Shown here one piece after another: positions 32,746 to 64,000 of a stretch of DNA of 64,000 nucleotides (position 1 is the first letter of the stretch; the number at the start of each line of letters is the position of its first letter). Source of the DNA: Candidatus Latescibacterota bacterium (GTDB taxonomy: Bacteria; Latescibacterota; UBA2968; UBA8231). A program made the position numbers and the translations under genes. The stretch is from the NCBI GenBank assembly GCA_965223905.1, contig CBDCXV010000010.1, forward strand, positions 1,024,001-1,088,000, written 5' to 3'. The notes beneath the pieces are model-generated. The model was not told the DNA's origin. It made no database searches and saw only the letters and a program-made list of their open reading frames with translations.

Positions 32746-32824
32746 GGGATCGTAGTTCAGTTTGGTTTAGAACGCCGGCCTGTCACGCCGGAGGTCGCGG
32801 GTTCGAGTCCCGTCGATCCCGCCA
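32746..32824 (+). tRNA. tRNA-Asp(GTC)
   Basis: Acceptor gggatcg/cgatccc, anticodon arm ccggc-ctGTCac-gccgg, ggttcgagtcc T-arm, encoded CCA. Confidence 0.97.
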
Positions 32825-54448: not shown

Positions 54449-54823
54449 CAGTCGGTAACCCCCCAGGGAACGCTTGCCCGTTTCTGACGGCCGGTGCTAT
54501 ATTCCAACATCTTGTAACATCTTATAAATTCTGAATTTGCCCGATGGCAGGCGCCCCTTTCGAGCGCCGCCGACTGCGCCCAACCCCCAAGGGCGCCGGA
54601 TTTCCCCTCCCCCTCTCCACAGACTCTCCACCCTGCAACGGGTGCGGCGGCTACGCTCGCCGCGAAAGGTGACGTCACGCCGGGAAGAACCCGTCTTGCG
54701 GGTTGCCGCGCAGGAGGCAGGCAGGATGTGCCTGCACGCCGGGGGTCCGGTGATGAGAGCAATCATCGCCAACTCGTTCGAAAGCAGAATAATCTGGAAG
54801 AGAATACAACTGAAAGACCGGTC

Positions 54824-55954
54824 ATGATTCTGGATATACGACATCTGCAATTGGCTCCGGACGCCGAGGATCCACCGGAGGCCGGACAGGAGAAAGCGGA
54901 ACCGCAGGCGGCTGAGAACCCCAAGGCTCCGGAGTCGTCTTGCAGCCCCGATCTGGAGGATCTGCTGAATGCGGCATGCAGCGAAGACGCCGGCGAGCGA
55001 GCGGAGGCGATCGCGCAGCTGCGGGCCCTCGTCCCCAGCAGGGAAGGGGCCGATTACCTGGGCGGAATCGTCGAGGACGCGGCCGATACGCGACGGCTGA
55101 CCGCGGCTCAATTGCTCGGGTTCCACCGCGGCTGGCTGGCCGCCCGGTCGGGGGCGGAGCGGTTGACCGGGTGGGTCCGGAACGAAACCGACCCCGAAGT
55201 GGGCCGCGCCCTCGTCTGGGCCCTGCGCGGCAGGACTGAGGTGAGGGAGTTTCTCCTCCACCGCGTCCCCGGAATTGCCCGCGAAGCGGCCCTGGGACTG
55301 CCGGTCAGAAAGGAGACGGCGCCGGCCCTGGTCTCGGCCGTGCTGGCCGGCTGTGCCCGCGATGTCGAAACCATCCTGCTCGACAAGCTGAGGACGGCAC
55401 CGGGCTCGTTGGCTGCGACGATATCGGAACTGGTCGTCGAGTGGGTGGGATCGGCCAGCGAGGAGGCGATTCTCGCCCTGGTCGCCTGCCTGCCGCAGGT
55501 GGAAATCTTCGAGCATTTCGTCGAAAAACGAGGCGTGCCGACCTTCGATCCGCGGGCCGGCGAAGAGGCGACCGAAATGCTGCGAAGATGGCATCGACTG
55601 GCCAGGATGGTGGAGACGGCGATGCTGGAAGAGCCGTCGGCAGAGCTGGTGCGCCATCTTGTCGGACGCTGCGCCCGCGACGACGCCTTTGCCCGCCGGC
55701 ATGCTTCGTTCCTCACCGCGGCGATCGCCAACACCGGGGCGACGTTCGGCAGCGAGCTGCTCAGGGATCTCGAGCGCCTCGCGATCGCGGCGAGCGAGGA
55801 GCGACTGGTGAAGATGGCGGGGATGCTGCTCGAGCTGAAGGCCCGGCTCGACAGGCGGGCGGAACCGGAGGCCGAGGAGTTGCTCGAGGGGTGGAAGGGA
55901 AGATCGCCGGCGCTAAAGCTCAAGATCTATCACATGCAGCAAGGTCTCGACTAG
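54824..55954 (+). CDS. HEAT-repeat-like hypothetical protein
   Basis: Alpha-helical repeats (RLTAAQLLG, ETDPEVGRALVWAL, AREAALGL). Confidence 0.65.
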   Translation: MILDIRHLQLAPDAEDPPEAGQEKAEPQAAENPKAPESSCSPDLEDLLNAACSEDAGERAEAIAQLRALVPSREGADYLGGIVEDAADTRRLTAAQLLGFHRGWLAARSGAERLTGWVRNETDPEVGRALVWALRGRTEVREFLLHRVPGIAREAALGLPVRKETAPALVSAVLAGCARDVETILLDKLRTAPGSLAATISELVVEWVGSASEEAILALVACLPQVEIFEHFVEKRGVPTFDPRAGEEATEMLRRWHRLARMVETAMLEEPSAELVRHLVGRCARDDAFARRHASFLTAAIANTGATFGSELLRDLERLAIAASEERLVKMAGMLLELKARLDRRAEPEAEELLEGWKGRSPALKLKIYHMQQGLD

Positions 55955-56127
55955 TGCCTGCTAGTGCCTGCGCGCGTAACGCGCGTAAGTAGACGTACGA
56001 ACGAGGGCGAGGACCAACTACGTCCTTGCGCCGATGCGCCCGGCTCGCAAGGCGCCCTGAGCGAGTCGTACCGGGGGTGTACGGCGAGCGAAGGCAACGC
56101 CGCTGTCGGGAACAGTGGAAAAAATGA
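55951..56127. repeat. Truncated CTAG-ended MITE, related to 44591..44757
   Basis: ctagtgcctg x2, then the shared core cggctcgcaaggcg...gtgtacggcgagcga.ggcaacgccgc. Confidence 0.65.
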
Positions 56128-57570
56128 GGCTCGTCAGTAGAATTGGTGGGTGAATTGGGGTTCGGGTAAATCGCCAAGCTGATGAAATGAAGCGATTTGG
56201 AGTGCCTTGAAGGTGCGGAATCCGAAGGCTTTTCTCACCGTCAGATTCCATTTCAGGTTCAAGCCCTCGACCATGCCGTTGTTGAACTGCTTGTGAGCCC
56301 GGAACCAATTGAGGAGGAGCTCTTGATGGCGGCGCAGCATCTTGGCGACGTCTTTCATCGGTTCGATGGTGCTTCGCATCGTGCGGAAACACCAGCGGTG
56401 GAGGAAGTTCTCTGCCCAGGCGGGGTAGGTGTAGTCCCAAAAGCGCTGGAAGTCCTCCTTCAGCAGGTAAGCTTTGACGGTGCGCAGGTTCATCTTCAAG
56501 AGCTCGGACAGCTTCAAGTCCTGGGTGTCGGTGAGGTTCTCCTTGCGCTTGAGGAAGCACCAGCGGCTCTTGCACAGGACGGGATCCTGGCCCTCCTCTT
56601 TGAGTCTGCGGGTCTCTTCGGCACGGACTTTGTCGAGGGCCTTGCTGAAGTGCTGCATGAGGTGAAAGCGGTCGAGAATGTGGACCGCCGCCGGGAGCCG
56701 ATTGCCGATGACGGTGAGGTAGGCTTTCCAGATATCTGAGCAGATGACGGCGATCTGGCCCAGGAAACTGGTCGGCTCCTTCTCGCCGGCCGCTTCTTGC
56801 TTGCGCTGGTGCTCTTGCTCCAGTTCGGTAAAGCCGTCGTCCAAGGTCTGCTTCGTCCGCTTTTGGCCCATCCACAACAACCGGCGGCGGTGCGTGTCGA
56901 TCTGGTACAGCAGGGTCAGATAATGATGGCCCTTACCAAACTGAATTTCATCCACGCCGAGGGCGGTGACTTGGTCGAGGCGGCGATGGGTGAGCCCATA
57001 GTCCACGACGTACTGGACGGAATGGTAGACCTTGTCCCAGCTGGTCCGGAAGGAGCGCGCCACCTCCGTCCACGACAGCTTTTTGGCCCACCGCGCCAGG
57101 AAACACCGGTAGATGTCGGTCAGGTGGTGCTTGCCCGTGCTCCAGGGGACCTTCTCGACGACCACCCGGCCGCAGCCTTTGCAGGCAACCCGGCGCATCC
57201 GATACACCAGAAAGACCGGGAATCCCCACAGCGGAACAAACTCGAACCGCCGTGCAGCGGTGGCCGTGTCATAGGTCGGGGACAACTGACCGCAGCCGCT
57301 GCACTGGGCCCTGGAGTTCTTTCGGGGCCTCAGGCGCACCATGATCCTTCCGTGCTCGTCAAAGCCACTCTCTTCAAACACAAACCGCTTGAATTTCGTG
57401 CACCGGTTCAGTACCGTGATCAGGCGCATCATTCCCACCAGGGTAAGTCGGGATCGGTCTTCGGCGACTGTCCCAACATACCGGGGATGATGCGCCTGGG
57501 CTATCCTCGGCTTCCTCTATGCCCATCAGCGCTCGCGGGCCCTTTCACCCACAGATTCTGCGGAGGAGCC
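56128..57570 (-). mobile_element. ISL3 family insertion sequence
   Basis: Ends ggctcgtcagtagaattggtgggtgaa / ttcacccacagattctgcggaggagcc are imperfect IRs. Confidence 0.9.
56134..57438 (-). CDS. ISL3 transposase
   Basis: CSGC..CKGC Zn finger, LGVDEI, CSDIW, DRFH, NGMVEGLN, AFGFR. Confidence 0.95.
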   Translation of the reverse strand: MGMMRLITVLNRCTKFKRFVFEESGFDEHGRIMVRLRPRKNSRAQCSGCGQLSPTYDTATAARRFEFVPLWGFPVFLVYRMRRVACKGCGRVVVEKVPWSTGKHHLTDIYRCFLARWAKKLSWTEVARSFRTSWDKVYHSVQYVVDYGLTHRRLDQVTALGVDEIQFGKGHHYLTLLYQIDTHRRRLLWMGQKRTKQTLDDGFTELEQEHQRKQEAAGEKEPTSFLGQIAVICSDIWKAYLTVIGNRLPAAVHILDRFHLMQHFSKALDKVRAEETRRLKEEGQDPVLCKSRWCFLKRKENLTDTQDLKLSELLKMNLRTVKAYLLKEDFQRFWDYTYPAWAENFLHRWCFRTMRSTIEPMKDVAKMLRRHQELLLNWFRAHKQFNNGMVEGLNLKWNLTVRKAFGFRTFKALQIASFHQLGDLPEPQFTHQFY

Positions 57571-58162
57571 AAAAATTGAATAAGGCACCTCTGCTCTTCT
57601 TGATTTTATCAGGCTTAGGTTCTTTTGCACGAGCATAGGCTTTGAGGATGATGTCCACTGGAAATTTCCTGCAGTAATTCTTGTAAAGACGAAGATTCTT
57701 CATGTCATCCAATCCATCCGCGATTCGGTATGCCAGCTGATTCTCTGGGGTAGATGACTCGGTGTCCCCATTCTTGCTGTGGACATCCCTGCGATCGCTA
57801 TCGCCAGTATATAAATCAGGAGAAGAAGAATAGCTATCGTAGGGAATTGGTACAGCGATTTTTGCGACAGCGATTTCCGTTGGGGACAACGATTCCCCTG
57901 TGTTTTTCGGGATTTCATAGATGGACAAGCGTGATTGATTGAAACCTCGGCGATACCCAATCTTACCCTGCTTTGTCAAGCTCAACACAGCCCTGTTCGT
58001 GGTGTTCACCGAGAGCCTGCAGTGCTGGGCAAGTTTGCGCATGGACAGCATGAACCTGCCGCCAGCTCCTCCGCACAGGCTTTCCAAGGTCCAATACACC
58101 ACTGCTTCTGATGGACGTTCAAAGTGCGGCAATGCTTTGGATTGTGATTGCGATTGCTTCAT
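57571..58162 (-). CDS. wHTH replication-initiator-like protein, extreme C-terminus cut by ISL3
   Basis: SMRKLAQHCRLSVNTTNRAVLSL HTH; C-terminal KIKKSRGALFNF runs into the IS end. Confidence 0.55.
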
Positions 58163-58461
58163 GCTGAATGAGATGAATGCTCGTCTTGGCGCTTCTGGAA
58201 CAGCTCCACGCGCCTGCGGCCCACTGGGTCATAGATTTCATCAAACAAGCGCGGATAAATATCCCTGATTGGCCGTTGCAAAGCTGCCTCCAGCTTTATC
58301 ACGGTCTTGATGGATGGCAGTTTGCGGCCTGCCTCCATATGAGAAAGAGAGCTGACGCTTTCGTAGCCCATAATGCGCGCCAGTTCCCGCTGTTTCAGTC
58401 CCTTTTCCTTGCGTAATTGCCGAATTCGGTTTGGGTACCGAGTAGATGATGATCCCTCCAT
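58159..58461 (-). CDS. XRE-family HTH regulator
   Basis: NRIRQLRKEKGLKQRELARIMG..SLSHMEAGRKLPS. Confidence 0.9.
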   Translation of the reverse strand: MEGSSSTRYPNRIRQLRKEKGLKQRELARIMGYESVSSLSHMEAGRKLPSIKTVIKLEAALQRPIRDIYPRLFDEIYDPVGRRRVELFQKRQDEHSSHSA

Positions 58462-58749
58462 AGGATTATTGTATCGTGAGAATACGATTACTGCTGATAC
58501 GCTTTACAATACCAAACCCACCACCCTATCCAAGCGGGGCTGAGTTGTTTCAGGAGATACATTAGAGGAAACATGAATTCCAGATAAATAAGAGATGAAA
58601 TAGTCTTCAAGAGAGAGATGCCAAGTTGTGATTGATATACCCGCAGTTTCCTGTGAGCCTATCAATCGATATCACCCTGGTTGTCCACAGTTATTGATGC
58701 GGTTGAGCGAAAGCCGAGCTGTAAAGGTCATCTATTGCGGCTCTGCGCG

Positions 58750-59463
58750 TCATACGACAACACTACCTTCATATACTTTCAACGTGCATCCGATGTCTTT
58801 GGCAATAGAGGACGCCAACTTTTCATACTGTCTTGGGACTACTATGAAGTCTATATCTTCATTGGAAAATCTCAACGCGTAACAGATGTCCTTAGCATGG
58901 CCGGAAACATTGTCAAGAGTAATATCTCCCACTTTGGCATCATTCAGTTTGAAATTATCTCCCTTCATTCTCACATCAATAGGCAAACGCCATTCGCGCT
59001 GGTCGTAATTAGGAATTTCGTTACCGCACGTGTCCGTGTGGCTATACTCCTGTAGAAGAGCGAGTGCAAGTAAGAGAGCGTTCACTTGGTCTGCAGTGAT
59101 ATCTGTTTCATTCCACCCTGAATCCACTTCCTTGTCGTGCATTTACGCCGCAACTTTAAGCAGTGGATTGAAAACATCTTTAAGAGCCGCACAACTCACG
59201 TATGCGACTGGACGGACACCGTATTTGTACAGAGTTTCACGATTGAAACCGATTCCTATTTTGCCAAATTTCTGACAGATGAAACGGCAATCCTGCAGCG
59301 GTATCTCCGTGAAACACACCATGCGTATTTTGTACTTCGGATTCCCTCTGAAACGGTCTGCGTACGTGAGGCGCAATAAACGCGACTTGCATATGTTTCG
59401 GAGAACGTCAAGGGCTTCTGCTTCGGTTTTCCCGCGACCTGTCCAGTGAATCAATTGTCCCAT
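58750..59463 (-). pseudogene. AbiGi-like abortive-infection protein split by an in-frame TAA (59143-59145)
   Basis: LIHWT, MVCFTEIPL, FGKIGIGF, GVRPVAY in the first ORF; YDQREWR in the contiguous same-frame second ORF. Confidence 0.7.
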
Positions 59464-59564
59464 GATTTCGGCTCCGAGTTTGTGGTTTAATTAGTCTAAT
59501 AGAGTGTCCCTTCTGGCAACATCACCCCCATTGCCCGCACCCGCCCGCCCGATATCATAAAGGC

Positions 59565-59759
59565 ATGCAGCTTACCCAAGAAGCGCTCAACGAATTCAAA
59601 CAGATCTACCGCGAAGACCTCGGCATCAACCTTACCAATGAGGAGACGCTGGGCCTGGCCACTTCCTTTTTCAATCTCATGCAAGCCGTCTACCGTCCCC
59701 TTCCAGACGACGAATCCTATAGCGAAGATTGCACCCCCGACCAAGACGTGGTAGACTGA
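59565..59759 (+). CDS. Small helical protein upstream of the serine recombinase
   Basis: MQLTQEALNEFKQIYREDLGINLTNEE..LMQAVYRP; upstream TTGCCC..TATCAT promoter-like sequence. Confidence 0.65.
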   Translation: MQLTQEALNEFKQIYREDLGINLTNEETLGLATSFFNLMQAVYRPLPDDESYSEDCTPDQDVVD

Positions 59760-59930
59760 CCCCGTTGACCCGTCCACAGAGCAACCCGTAAGATTTTTGG
59801 TTCGCATTGCTGGCCCCAAAGGGGCGGTCTGCCAACAATACAACTCCTTACGGGGCGCGTGGGTTGGGTCAACCAGGCGCTCCTTTTGGTTTACCGTCCG
59901 AAGCTTCAGCAAGGACGGCTCCTCATCACT

Positions 59931-61712
59931 ATGAACCCACCATCATCAACCCCAATCAAATACCTCATCTACGCGCGCAAATCCGCGGAAAGCGAAGACA
60001 AGCAAGTCGCATCCATTGATTCCCAGATAAAGGAGCTGCAAGACATAGCCCAGCGTGACAATCTGGAGATAATTGACGTTCTCTCCGAATCCAAGTCTGC
60101 CAAGGCCCCGGGCAGGCCAGTATTTGGAGGCCTCATTGCCCGTGTTTCACGGGGCGATGCAAACGGTATCCTGTGCTGGAAGCTGGACAGGTTAGCCCGC
60201 AACCCGGTTGACGGCGGCAATATCAGCTGGATGCTCCAGCAAGGTCTGATTCAGCACCTCCAGACCCATGAGCGCGGCTACTATCCCACGGACAATGTGC
60301 TCATGATGGCCGTGGAACTTGGAATGGCCAATCAGTTCATCCGCGATTTGAGTGAGAATACCAAACGAGGACTACGCGCCAAAGTTGAGCAGGGCTGGTA
60401 TCCGGGTGTTGCCAAACCTGGATACTTGAATGAGTTCCATCGCCAGAAAGGCGAACGCACCACTCCAAAAGATCCAATCCTCTTCCGGCTGCTTAGGCGC
60501 GCCTTCAATCTCATCCTCGCCGGCCAGGCTCCATCGCAGATATTAGACAAGCTCAACAATGAGTGGGGATTTCGCACGCTCAAACGGAGAAAACTCGGCA
60601 ACAAGCCCCTTGCCCGTAGCACCTTGTATCGGATTCTCGCGGACCCCTTTTATTACGGCCGCTTTGAGTATCCAGAGGGCTCAGGCAACTGGTATCAGGG
60701 CAAGCATACGCCCATGATTACGGAGGATGAATTCTGGCACATGCAAGAGCTCTTGGGCAAAGAGGGCAGGCCTCGCCCCCAAAAGCGCACCTTTGCGTTT
60801 ACTGGGTTGATGTCCTGTGGCGAATGCAATGCTGCCATCACTGCTCATGCCAAAGAACAAGTCATCTGCTCGGTCTGCAAACGCAAGTTCGCCTGCAAGA
60901 ATCGCTCAGCTTGTCCAGCCTGCAATACCAACATCGCCGAAATGCGCGCGCCTAAACACTTACACTACGAATACTACCATTGCACCAAGCGCAAGATTCC
61001 CTCGTGCTCCCAGGGAGCCTTGGAAGTCAAGAAGCTTGAAGCCCAAGTCAGTGAACTTCTCGCGTCCCTCACCATCCCGGAGCGCCTCAAAGACTGGTAC
61101 CTGAAGCAAATAGAAAACGCAGCAGAAACAGAGATTGATGAACAGACCGCCGTCCGAAACTCCCTTCAGGATGCGATTGATGATTCCAAGAAGCGCGTCA
61201 ACAACCTACTGGCGCTCAAAATATCATCCCAAAATTCCAACGGCGACCTTTTGAGCGACGAAGAATTCGCTGCCCAGAGGACAGCGTTGACCCGTGAGAT
61301 GAACCAGCTCAAACAAAAAATGGCCAGCATAGAAAAACATGCCGACCACTGGAGAGACGCCTGTGCAAAGACCTTTAACTTCGCCTGTTGCGCCGAAGGC
61401 CACTTCAAAAATGGCTCACCAGAGACCAAACGAGCCATTCTCGCTGCCCTTGGTTTGAACCTAACTCTTATGAACAAAAAACCCCGAATTTCCTTGCACA
61501 AACACTTCATCTTGATGCAGAAAATCCACCAGGGAGTCAAAGCCCAAAACGGTAGGTTTGAACCTTAAAATTTCCGCCAACCTAAAGGAAAAAACAGGGT
61601 TCTTGACCCTGCTTTTTCCACATGGCTCCGAGGGTGGGACGAAGTTAGAACCCATTTCATGAAATCCACAACAAGTATCCGCATCCCCGACCTCACACCA
61701 CCAAATCCGTAG
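59931..61712 (+). CDS. Large serine recombinase; probable premature TAA at 61566-61568, frame continues to 61712
   Basis: YARKS, WKLDRLARN, recombinase domain, Zn ribbon with a CxxC insert, coiled coil. Confidence 0.9.
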
Positions 61713-61874
61713 ATCACCTCGCCTTATTGTAACGACCTGCAGACAATTGGTAAATCCACCGAACACCTCAATTGCCGCCGCATCCGACCATACGGCGACC
61801 TATTGCGAGAATTCCACGATTCCATTATACTGCCCATATAAGCACTATTAAGAAGCGGTACTATCACGGAGGCT

Positions 61875-62925
61875 ATGAACATGAACGATCCTAAAATCAC
61901 GTACTTTCCCGTCGGCAATGGAGACACCAGCCTGATTCGCCTCTCCGACGAGACCGACATCATTATTGACTGTAACATCACCGAGGAATCCCAGGACGAT
62001 TCGGAGAGCGCCCGCTACGATGTTCGCAGTCATTTGCTGAAATCCCTCAAGAAGAGGGATGGGGTCTCGTATGCAGACGCTTTTGTCCTAACTCACCCAG
62101 ACCAAGACCACTGCCGTGGATTTGCGGAGACCTTCTATACTGGCAATCCCGCCCAGTACAGCGATTCTCATAAACGGGATGGTCTCATTCTCATTGATGA
62201 ATTGTGGTTTTCGCCGCGCATTTTTTCTCCGCACGAGGATGAGCTGAGCGAACCTGCCAAGGCGTTCCACAAAGAGGCCAAGCGGAGAATGAAGCTCTAT
62301 CAGGACGGAGCGTCAGAGCGGAGCAACTCTGGCAACCGGCTCCGCATTATCGGCTACTCGGACAACCCTGAGCTTGAAGGCTTGGAAGCTATCATTACCG
62401 CGCCTGGCAACTATATCAATCTCATCAACGACAGCGTTAAGGATGACTTCTCGTTCTTTGTGCATGCTCCCTTCCGCAAGGATACTGATTCAAAATGGGG
62501 CGAGCGCAACGATACCAGCGTAGTCCTGCACACCCAATTTGAAGTAGATGGTGACGAGCGAGCTGGTTTAGCATTCTTCGGCGGTGACGCTGGATGCTCC
62601 ATATGGGAAGAGATCCTTGAAAAAAGTGATGACGATACTTTAGAGTGGGATTTGTTTATGGCGCCGCATCACTGCTCCTGGACTTTTTTCAGTGAAGAGC
62701 CTTACAAAGACAACCAAGTGCCGAGCGAGAAATCTTTGGAAATCCTCGGGAAGAAGCGCGAGGGGGCCCTTGTGGTGGCCCCCTGCAAGCCCATCAAAGA
62801 CGATGACGACAACCCGCCCCACTACGCCGCCGCCGAAGAGTATAAGGAAGTTGTCGGAGAGGAAAATTTTCTCGCCACGATGGAACACCCTGACGAGGAA
62901 CATCTGCTCCCAATTGAGTTTGAAA
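61875..62925 (+). pseudogene. ComEC/Rec2-like metallo-beta-lactamase-fold hydrolase, truncated by IS1380
   Basis: FPVGNGD, THPDQDH, NDTSVV, GGDA, APHHCS. Confidence 0.8.
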
Positions 62926-64000
62926 CCCTAACGTTGCATAAATCGGGCTTGGAACGTGTGCTTGCCGTCAAGCCGCCTTGTGAAGCGCGTCGATGAAATG
63001 CAACAAGTCGTTTTCGACCATGGGATTGGGGGTGAGCGTTAGCGTCAAGTTTCCCTGGGGCTGCGTGAGACGACCAGCGCGCTGGATGAAGCGGTGACGG
63101 AGGGTGTCCAGCGTCTGGAATAACCAGGCGGCCGGGCGCTTGGCACGGGAGTAAGTGGAACGCGGATGGGCCAGCATTTGTATCTCTCGTCCCAGGTTAT
63201 GCGCCATCATCGCACACAGCGTGACCATCTGGTTGCCGACCAACCGCCGGGTGGGGATCAAATCAAGGCCGGCGTGCTGCCTGGCCTCAGCGAAAATGCC
63301 TTCCTGAGAGCCGCGGCCATGGTGGAAGAGGAGCACGCTGCGAGCTGAGCCCATCTTGTTGGTGACGACGACGCGGTAGTCGTAGTCGACGACGCGGGGC
63401 TCGAACAGATCCAGTTGCAGGGGGCCCTTCACCTGGCGTCGCACCTGGTGTCGCACAAACAGGAAGCGGTATGTAGCCGGCCACGATTTCGGCTTCCAGT
63501 CGCTTTCGAAGTAGCAGCGCTCGCCATCCAGATGACGCCAGCGACGCCGCGACTCGATCATCTGCTTGAGCACGGCAAAGCGTTCGAAAGGGACGCTGAC
63601 TGTGCACTCGACGCCATACAGGTCCATGAGGGTCAGCGTCTTCTGGTTGAAGAAGGCACTATCCATGCGGGATTCGAGCACGACCTTGGGGAAGGCGGCA
63701 CGGACGCGGTCGAAGTTGACTATCATGAATTCATGCGCCCCCTTGCTGTCATGGACATTGCCGGATCGGTGAAGGACATCGAGAAACTGTCCGGTCTGAG
63801 CCACGGTGGCAAACAGGTTGTAGTAACTGCGGGCGCCCTTCTTCTTGGTGTTGTATCCGACGGCGGTGCCTTCGGCGTGTCCCTGCGTAGACACCACCGA
63901 GCCATCGAAGTCCAGGGTCAAGCGGGCCAGCTGTTCCCGCTCCAGGCCCTCGACCACCAGCGCTGAAGAAAGCGCGCGCACCTGCTCGACACTCTTTCGA
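62926..64000 (-). mobile_element. IS1380 family element; transposase 62968..>64000 runs off the window
   Basis: [27 protein letters not shown]; end ccctaacgttgcat. Confidence 0.9.

Follow-up and report, generated by a model that had tools for sequence, protein, structure and literature searches.

A large serine recombinase gene of a Candidatus Latescibacterota bacterium that probably contains its own tRNA-mimicking attachment site

Why should the reading frame of a recombinase gene continue past its stop codon, and why should the DNA that follows resemble, on the opposite strand, the 3′ end of a transfer RNA (tRNA)? Both questions are raised by a gene for a large serine recombinase (LSR) in a 64,000-nucleotide (nt) stretch of a Candidatus Latescibacterota genome (assembly GCA_965223905.1, contig CBDCXV010000010.1, positions 1,024,001 to 1,088,000, forward strand), referred to here as the window; the host has a 7.9-Mb chromosome of 64% G+C. 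An earlier note on this DNA had proposed that the gene harbors an unrecombined attachment site (attP) for integration into a tRNA gene. Comparison with relatives now makes it likely that 61560-61712 is the 3′ end of the LSR gene together with the element's own attP, unrecombined and located inside the integrase gene. The core of this proposal, namely an attP within the integrase gene itself, integration at tRNA genes and an exchanged C-terminus, draws its support from the tRNA junctions of relatives and from a 5-bp shift of one sequence box between free and integrated forms.

The LSR gene spans 59931..61712 on the plus strand, from an ATG at 59931, and comprises 593 codons and a TAG, with an in-frame TAA at codon 546 (61566-61568). 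This codon is the sole internal stop; read through it (TAA as X), 59931-61711 forms a single open frame of 593 residues, confirming that the frame remains open, and beyond the TAA it encodes NFRQPKGKNRVLDPAFSTWLRGWDEVRTHFMKSTTSIRIPDLTPPNP before ending at the TAG at 61710-61712. In Pfam searches, the product matches Resolvase (PF00239, 1.4e-18, residues 13-155) and, after this catalytic domain, Recombinase (PF07508, 4e-09, 37.1 bits against a cut-off of 21.1), followed by the zinc ribbon PF13408 (Zn_ribbon_recom, 6.9e-05) at 23.6 bits, just under its cut-off of 25.3. The same zinc ribbon is annotated in many homologs in a precomputed domain list. A protein search with the window LSR returned 4379 relatives among 8000 scored candidates, and the read-through protein was aligned with 28 of 120 listed homologs (29 rows). 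Cys296, 299, 313, 316, 328, 331, 351 and 359 are invariant in this alignment, as are R16 and S18, the conserved arginine and the serine nucleophile. Judged by its domain content, the window recombinase is a large serine recombinase, or serine integrase.

Homologs show that the gene does not naturally end at the TAA. Among the matches listed, the closest homologs (60-72% identity) are 577-645 amino acids long, mostly 590-593, which is the read-through length. The aligned homologs do not stop at the Phe-Glu-Pro (FEP) codons that precede the TAA in the window but run on, mostly with Lys or Glu in place of the window's stop codon. Contigs from public sequencing runs were compared over 57400-63000, two of them (X1 and X2) from one sample, probably the source, and a third (X3) from another study. 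Runs X1 and X2 retain the T at 61566. The X3 contig, which is labelled as another organism, is 5741 nt long, shows 7 differences across the 5527 nt that align to 57474-63000, and has an A at 61566 that yields a sense codon. Because X1 and X2 carry the T and X3 a sense codon, the TAA is, on these sequences, a premature stop that is real in the source sample and evolutionarily recent. This accounts for an open frame that continues past a stop, and it places the inactivation of the integrase as recent.

The 47 codons orphaned by the nonsense codon (61569..61709, plus strand) constitute what is here called the free-form tail. Its pattern, WL...D.(V/I/A/L)RT.F with a terminal [ILVM]P[DE]L, is common to 22 of the 28 aligned homologs. 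Another 4 of the 28 diverge from it at the Asp column, beyond which they have DSN-type residues, the coding product of the antisense strand of a tRNA T-loop. The alignment bears out the contrast that the earlier note had drawn between an RT-bearing tail and a tRNA-derived one, and the predicted exchange of the C-terminus upon integration is visible in these relatives as a tail replaced by tRNA-antisense residues.

If the tail contains an attachment site for tRNA genes, then integrated relatives should abut a tRNA at one fixed place, and they do. In total, 160 family loci were fetched, half of them (80) from species genomes, chiefly of Patescibacteria, and the other 80 from metagenomes, and junctions were counted in the 125 that include the gene end and at least 135 nt beyond it. 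ARAGORN called an antisense tRNA at 80 of these 125 loci, making the tRNA-joined form the majority, and in 77 of the 80 the tRNA 3′ end lies 57-60 nt past the FEP codons. About 0.015 such junctions would be expected by chance, given how densely other minus-strand tRNAs occur in these loci. tRNA-Asn leads the isotypes at the 80 junctions with 37, ahead of Tyr (12), His (9), Gln and Gly (6 each), Trp (4) and Leu (2); Lys, Ile, Met and Ser occur once each. The free tail form is kept in 16 of the 125 loci. It is also the form of the sole family member among the viral contigs searched, and of 17 of the 19 nearest protein homologs; tRNA-joined forms dominate the Patescibacteria loci. In 23 of the 29 unclassified loci, the T-arm antisense sequence occurs at the same offset; since tRNA homology stops at the anticodon loop there, ARAGORN makes no call. 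A plain coding tail whose tRNA likeness is coincidental, with the att site elsewhere, is exceedingly improbable: the end of the tail is indeed kept as protein, but 77 loci with a tRNA at one fixed distance stand against an expectation of 0.015, the tails switch at one alignment column, and free and joined forms of the same element diverge at that place. The homologs run past FEP, and the relatives are joined to antisense tRNAs at exactly the point where the attP had been proposed to lie.

What adjoins the LSR in those 23 loci is the 3′ half of a tRNA, mostly Asn-like (e.g., L007, L020, L033, L036 and L047; also L051, L055, L057-L059, L065 and L067). These half-tRNA junctions look like fragments displaced by a second type of element, one for which the anticodon loop of this tRNA serves as the target. 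A second element type at the same tRNAs would make these tRNA genes multi-element hot spots.

The anatomy of the window's site was read by aligning it with three close relatives, namely L085, a free form whose LSR is 68% identical, L088, which is joined to tRNA-Gln, and L084, which is joined to tRNA-Leu(TAA). The coding sequence and a hairpin downstream of it are common to all four, and the DNA homology between the window and L085 extends to about 61699. The central part, 61623-61655, reads TGGCTCCGAGGGTGGGACGAAGTTAGAACCCAT and consists of a tRNA 3′-end copy, five extra bases and a T-loop look-alike. The copy (61623..61639, minus strand) is 17 nt long and comprises, in antisense, CCA, a discriminator G, the 7-nt acceptor strand, the 5-nt strand of the T-stem and one base, the last, of the T-loop; it best matches tRNA-Asn. 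Next are five bases (61640..61644) that are absent from real tRNAs in the alignment with L088 and L084, and that displace the T-loop box outward. The look-alike of the T-loop and of the 5′ strand of the T-stem (61645..61655), which encodes the residues VRT and lies in the right (P′) arm of the site, is recognized by alignment, offset and folding; the folded site forms a T-arm with a loop of 12 nt instead of 7. The suggestion that the minus strand of 61623-61652 resembles a tRNA 3′ end holds, both in its sequence and in a 13/14 match to tRNA-Asn(GTT). The "non-tRNA" half of its T-loop is odd when set against a real tRNA, as had been claimed, but is a T-loop and T-stem look-alike that carries five extra bases. 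Most of the left (P) arm is taken up by a terminator-like hairpin with a T-run (61587..61619, minus strand), located 4 nt beyond the tRNA-like CCA. A terminator scan gives it 14 pairs, a loop of 5 and a T-rich tail, and its fold z-score is −3.0; equivalent hairpins across the family have a mean z of −1.84, with z below −2 in 36 of 76 distinct sequences. The hairpin may be a terminator that the element supplies to the tRNA it rebuilds. A direct repeat, 61639-61667 and 62017-62045 (76% over 29 nt), was also seen and, by a rough estimate, is compatible with chance.

The five extra bases set the free forms apart from the integrated ones. The distance from FEP to the T-loop core is 77 nt in 72 of the 80 tRNA-joined loci; in the window it is 82 nt, as it is in 12 of the 16 attP forms. 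This offset bears on another explanation, that the window contains a decayed junction in which the body of a tRNA-Asn has mutated beyond recognition, with a 5-nt insertion in its T-loop. Such decay would explain why the 17-nt 3′ end is tRNA-exact and why a T-arm-like hairpin persists, but the same 5-nt offset in 12 independent attP-form loci contradicts it. DNA and protein homology with attP-form relatives furthermore extends as far as the [ILVM]P[DE]L end, about 60 nt past the box, the single viral-contig member has the same form, and no Rfam tRNA matches here at E up to 10, leaving a decayed junction very unlikely. ARAGORN likewise found no cloverleaf on the minus strand of 61623-61700, and neither did Rfam at E up to 10.

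Where the strands are exchanged can be approached through same-element pairs. The free forms L102 and L104 and the tRNA-joined forms L106 and L107 are collinear up to 64 nt past FEP, equivalent to 61629 in the window, and differ only from there on, where they are unrelated. Three more comparisons of free and joined forms break after the same ...GCTCC or its equivalent. Flanking direct repeats of at least 12 nt were scanned for among the tRNA-joined loci, and only two cases are convincing: L096, where a 23-nt att repeat that starts at the CCA bounds an element of 7.5 kb, and L105, where a 16-nt repeat that starts at the equivalent of 61627 lies at both ends of a 10.4-kb element (these are the attL/attR junctions). 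The scarcity of such repeats follows if the element replaces only the tip of the tRNA, since they would then usually be too short to find. Terminal repeats that would indicate circularity were found in 0 of 7 small attP-form contigs, and L102 and L104 close no circle. Carried over from these relatives, the putative crossover zone in the window is 61627..61629 (tRNA positions 72-70). If the geometry is uniform, the exchanged dinucleotide would lie within 61627-61629 and the crossover within the last ~7 nt of the tRNA. Integration had been expected to restore the tRNA. Targeting of the 3′ end agrees with that expectation, but it would seem that only the extreme 3′ end and a terminator are restored and that the crossover does not fall within the T-loop.

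This geometry can be compared with that of a known serine integrase. A centre at 61628/61629 puts the T-loop box at half-site positions 16-24 in attP and 11-19 in the tRNA's site (attB). In a passage on the LI integrase, Rutherford et al. 2013 place the motif bound by the zinc-ribbon domain (ZD) at positions 16-24 of attP and 11-19 of attB, the ZD motif of attB being shifted 5 bp toward the centre relative to attP (PMC3783163). The 5-bp shift is thus what the serine-integrase model expects of a ZD motif, and the T-loop box may be that motif. Comparable free and integrated forms occur here in nature, so that a shift proposed from one crystal structure is seen at dozens of independent sites.

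Together, these observations suggest how elements of this clade may integrate. The minus strand of attP would mimic the downstream half of a tRNA-Asn gene, with a T-arm look-alike carrying five extra bases, a copy of the 3′ end and a terminator hairpin, and the integrases of the clade would recombine this site with the 3′ end of a tRNA gene. The host would keep nearly all of its tRNA and gain the 3′ tip and terminator of the element, while the LSR frame would enter the antisense tRNA and acquire a new, short tail. The outward shift of the box by 5 bp in attP would let the enzyme distinguish attP from attB. On this reading, the window copy has left its attP unused; it sits at the edge of a large accessory segment bracketed by insertion sequences (ISs).

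Several points weigh against this reading. The evidence of recombination by the LSR consists of comparative junctions, and the crossover position is taken from relatives whose LSRs are only 43-46% identical to that of the window. The P arm carries only a degenerate and asymmetrically placed mirror of the T-loop box, making the centre uncertain by a few bases. In 4 of the 16 attP forms, the pattern scan did not give 82; an earlier spurious match, offsets in the alignment or a variant of the box account for this. The tail past the att core is kept as protein, ending in [ILVM]P[DE]L, so that its conservation is partly at the protein level and not at the att level. No alternative joint at 61620-61650 was found in the contigs of four runs, although contigs drop rare forms. 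Attachment sites in the free form also occur on long chromosomal contigs elsewhere (L014, 112 kb; L040, 467 kb), with no tRNA within 19 kb of either copy; judged from these sequences, an unused attP in a chromosome is a recurrent and general question.

Which tRNA does the site imitate, and is that tRNA present in the host? When the window's 14 nt inward from the discriminator were compared with the 80 junction tRNAs, the best match was 13/14, with the tRNA-Asn(GTT) of L105, and the 12 best matches were all tRNA-Asn. The earlier note had suggested searching host tRNAs such as tRNA-Asn for the 3′ end, and here the result was negative: none of the host's 57 tRNAs (ARAGORN set) carries the 17-mer, and the host's only tRNA-Asn (contig C11) agrees with the 17-mer at 14 of 17 positions, the last 7 nt included. 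This tRNA has its own terminator and no element adjoins it, so it is unoccupied. A search of the genome with the 17-mer, allowing up to 2 mismatches, found only itself and two non-tRNA places. One of these two, L002, lies inside a long open frame and was dismissed as a chance match. The attP sites of the window and L085 are of the Asn type, and the relatives L084 and L088, with LSRs in the same range of 63-68% identity to that of the window as L085, sit at tRNA-Leu(TAA) and tRNA-Gln, respectively. Since close relatives differ in the tRNA they use, target switching is, on this comparison, fast within the clade. Recognition of the near-universal T-arm box, if true, would explain how relatives that are 63-68% identical move between tRNA-Asn, -Gln and -Leu.

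The window copy itself is not next to a tRNA. None was found adjacent to the LSR or within 19 kb downstream, Rfam reports no tRNA match at E up to 10 in 55500-64000 or in the 19 kb to the right, and the only tRNA in the window is a tRNA-Asp at 32746-32824. Nor did the genome yield a second LSR of the family or, anywhere, a second copy of the att region 61570-61720, and a spare attP in inverted orientation was looked for in 57400-63000 and not found. An attP-like sequence in a chromosome might nevertheless arise in a tandem array, as the junction between the P arm of the window element and the P′ arm of a relative that entered the restored tRNA afterward. The DNA to the right, from the 6A-MBL defense genes onward, would then be the second element. 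A precedent exists at L165 (G003:C4), where an integrated LSR2 overlaps a tRNA-Asn and, ~6.7 kb further on, an older LSR1 has an attP-form tail; this free-form tail is built from the P arm of LSR1 and the P′ arm of the newcomer. In the window's genome, however, a second att copy is lacking, as is a second LSR of the family; the 19 kb to the right contain neither a tRNA nor a tRNA fragment, and the host's only tRNA-Asn gene, which is unoccupied, lies on a different contig. The loss of both the second integrase and the tRNA would be required, and a tandem array is accordingly rather improbable.

How, then, might an unused attP have come to lie in this chromosome? Between ~57.5 kb and 71 kb or more, counted from the start of the window and thus past its end at 64,000, the DNA has 44-57% G+C, against 64-70% to the left. 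A genome of the same genus (G005), the one genome used for an empty-site comparison, has the left flank 54457-55954 and then, within ~84 nt, the homolog of contig position 1,143,895; ~64 kb (contig C10 1,079,955-1,143,895; window 55955 onward) are thus absent from its syntenic site. This segment is bracketed by an intact ISL3-family IS and, at the far end, by an internally deleted and right-truncated ISL3 remnant in the same orientation. In same-genus genomes, the right flank matched only dispersed repeats. Around the ISL3 and around the ~64-kb segment, the search for target-site duplications gave imperfect matches only, none of them clean, and no donor-site duplication was seen. The earlier note had proposed arrival by way of ISs. 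The bracketing ISL3 copies and the empty site in G005 speak for this proposal, and the lack of a clean target duplication speaks against it; the layout fits some IS-linked history, to which a tandem array is the rival. Part of the ~64-kb segment is host-like in its G+C content, and the segment may be a mosaic.

The gene contains two further T-loop-like boxes upstream of the att core. In a ranking of 9-mers over all three-codon positions of the LSR gene represented in 60 or more loci, nucleotide conservation is highest for the one that encodes Gly-Ser-Asn (GSN), which occurs as GGTTCGAAC in 88 of 147 loci; the window has GLN at this box (61452..61461). A one-codon shift of GGTTCGAAC reaches 70 of 146 loci, the next best position beyond the boxes reaches 26%, and the background codon product for GGT-TCG-AAC is about 1.5%. 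The FEP box (61557..61565) is the third most conserved 9-mer, occurring as TTCGAACCT in 37 and as TTAGAACCT in 27 of 84 loci, and its DNA is read in another frame, as (A/V)RTS, in some relatives. The GSN box lies 103 nt upstream of the FEP box, a spacing that is exactly the same in L084, L085 and L088. Both resemble the T-loop box and are located ~163 and ~60 nt before the tRNA tip, respectively. They have been considered as extra binding sites for the integrase or as relics of tRNA ends captured earlier.

These boxes invite a more speculative idea, one with a modest chance of being right, that the overlap of attP and integrase gene is a built-in state switch, the 3′ end of the gene serving as an array for DNA recognition. 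The full-length tail of the free element's enzyme, with its [ILVM]P[DE]L end, would be needed for integration or would regulate it. Integration would remove this tail and perhaps alter directionality or stability, possibly together with a small protein encoded upstream, and the two in-gene boxes would act as extra integrase-binding sites that aid or regulate synapsis. To our knowledge, the published model of serine integrases has no such accessory sites.

In several respects, the window element resembles known systems. Like the phage-type LSRs of Listeria A118/LI, Bxb1 and phiC31, it has resolvase and recombinase domains, a probable zinc ribbon and short att sites, and like LI integrase, as described in the structural report (PMC3783163), it has a recognition box that lies 5 bp farther from the centre in attP than in attB. 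Unlike these enzymes, the window clade targets tRNA 3′ tips (at least 13 tRNA species across the family) and not a protein-coding gene, and its attP lies inside its own reading frame, with a P′ arm that imitates the target and two in-gene T-loop-like boxes. Attachment sites within the coding sequence, giving the gene a new 3′ end, are described in passages on IntP of the Myxococcus phage Mx8 and on the SSV-type integrases of fuselloviruses (PMC6070905, PMC4383910), and the new 3′ end of the Mx8 gene is said there to change and not abolish integrase activity (PMC6070905). The window clade is similar in that its attP lies within the integrase gene and its C-terminus changes after integration. 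These systems are tyrosine recombinases, whereas the window clade is a serine recombinase, with different chemistry and a different site logic; and whereas SSV-type integration splits the gene in two, the window clade exchanges only the last ~25-47 codons.

A further likeness is to the tDNA islands of the Islander/TIGER class, whose elements keep the tRNA gene whole by bringing their own copy of its 3′ end, and in which tRNA-Asn is favored. The window clade differs from this class in its serine-type enzyme, in that only the last few copied bases matter, and in direct repeats that are mostly too short to detect. The Islander definition includes a tyrosine-family integrase, and none was seen among the island ORFs scanned; it also includes an intact tRNA at one end and a displaced fragment at the other, an arrangement that is true of the relatives and absent here.

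According to the Islander authors (PMC4383910), no integrases outside the tyrosine family were known to target tDNAs. Integrative mobilizable elements are the subject of a review which says that serine recombinases integrate within genes, and one paper makes a passing prediction of a serine-recombinase phage at tRNA-Met. The LSR survey by Durrant et al. does not, by term count only, use the word "tRNA" in its main text. In the literature searched, no biochemical study of any clade member was found, nor, in the full texts searched, a description of a tRNA-targeting LSR clade, which thus appears undescribed in print. This literature credits tRNA targeting to tyrosine integrases; here, a widespread clade of serine integrases docks on tRNA ends. 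The clade offers compact attP/attB pairs, predictable from sequence, at conserved tRNA ends, which may be of interest for genome engineering. The window copy, inactivated recently and not integrated, is of value for showing a free attP beside many integrated relatives.

Upstream of the LSR, a small conserved open reading frame (ORF; 59565..59759, plus strand) encodes 64 amino acids. Homologs of it precede the LSR, in the same orientation, at 35 or more distinct family loci, with the core LS.EAI.EFKEIYR...G..LSD.EA...A..L..L...YRPIP, and no Pfam or PHROG family matched it. A predicted complex of the 64-residue protein with LSR residues 285-545 scored 0.57 (runs 0.56-0.58), the best control scoring 0.00, with a partner pLDDT (predicted local distance difference test) of at least 68 and agreement between runs in at least 75% of contacts. 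Of 157 solved complexes, 116 reached the mark for such predictions, as did 2 of 215 mismatched pairs; passes at 0.60 or below, however, comprise only 18 of the 157 solved complexes and both passing mismatches. The prediction lends weak support to the protein as a candidate LSR partner or directionality factor.

Further upstream, an HTH_36 protein (205 amino acids) and an XRE-type regulator (100 amino acids), both identified by Pfam, are encoded on the minus strand (57545..58461). The module of HTH_36, XRE, the 64-residue ORF and the LSR is syntenic in L084, L087 and L088. At the left edge of the low-G+C DNA is the intact ISL3-family IS (56127..57573, minus strand), identified by Pfam DDE_Tnp_ISL3 (5e-66), terminal inverted repeats and comparison with its second copy. 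It cuts the 3′ end of the HTH_36 gene, its right end at 57573 falling within the last 28 nt of that ORF. The DNA to the left of the ISL3 showed no homology to family loci and no Pfam match in 5 ORFs. No other integrase was found among the island ORFs scanned, and the only recombinase of the module is of the serine type. Between the XRE gene and the 64-residue ORF lies an AbiGi-like gene (58750-59463, minus strand) that is split into adjacent ORFs of 130 and 106 amino acids, which correspond to the C-terminal and the N-terminal portion of the Pfam model. Probably it, too, is cargo that has decayed; L084 has only a short gap there.

The first gene past attP (61875..62996, plus strand) encodes a metallo-β-lactamase (MBL)-fold protein that NCBIfam assigns to the 6A-MBL anti-phage system (NF058524, 389 bits; cut-off 220). 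Its partner is an E2/E1/JAB fusion of 797 amino acids that lies outside the window (L164 2530-4923; contig C10 1,088,530-1,090,923) and matches Pfam Prok-E2_A, ThiF and Prok-JAB as well as PADLOC E1-E2 and JAB; an IS4-like insertion separates the two genes. An erythromycin-esterase-like gene of the island was considered as a resistance gene and was not called, at 42 bits against an EreB cut-off of 750. Short dispersed repeats, similar to repetitive extragenic palindromes (REPs) or miniature inverted-repeat transposable elements (MITEs), occur at window 55980-56100 (about 70-120 nt) and at L164 14484-14655 (about 170 nt). They are present in many copies in the host and in same-genus and same-family genomes, and one of them adjoins the left end of the ISL3.

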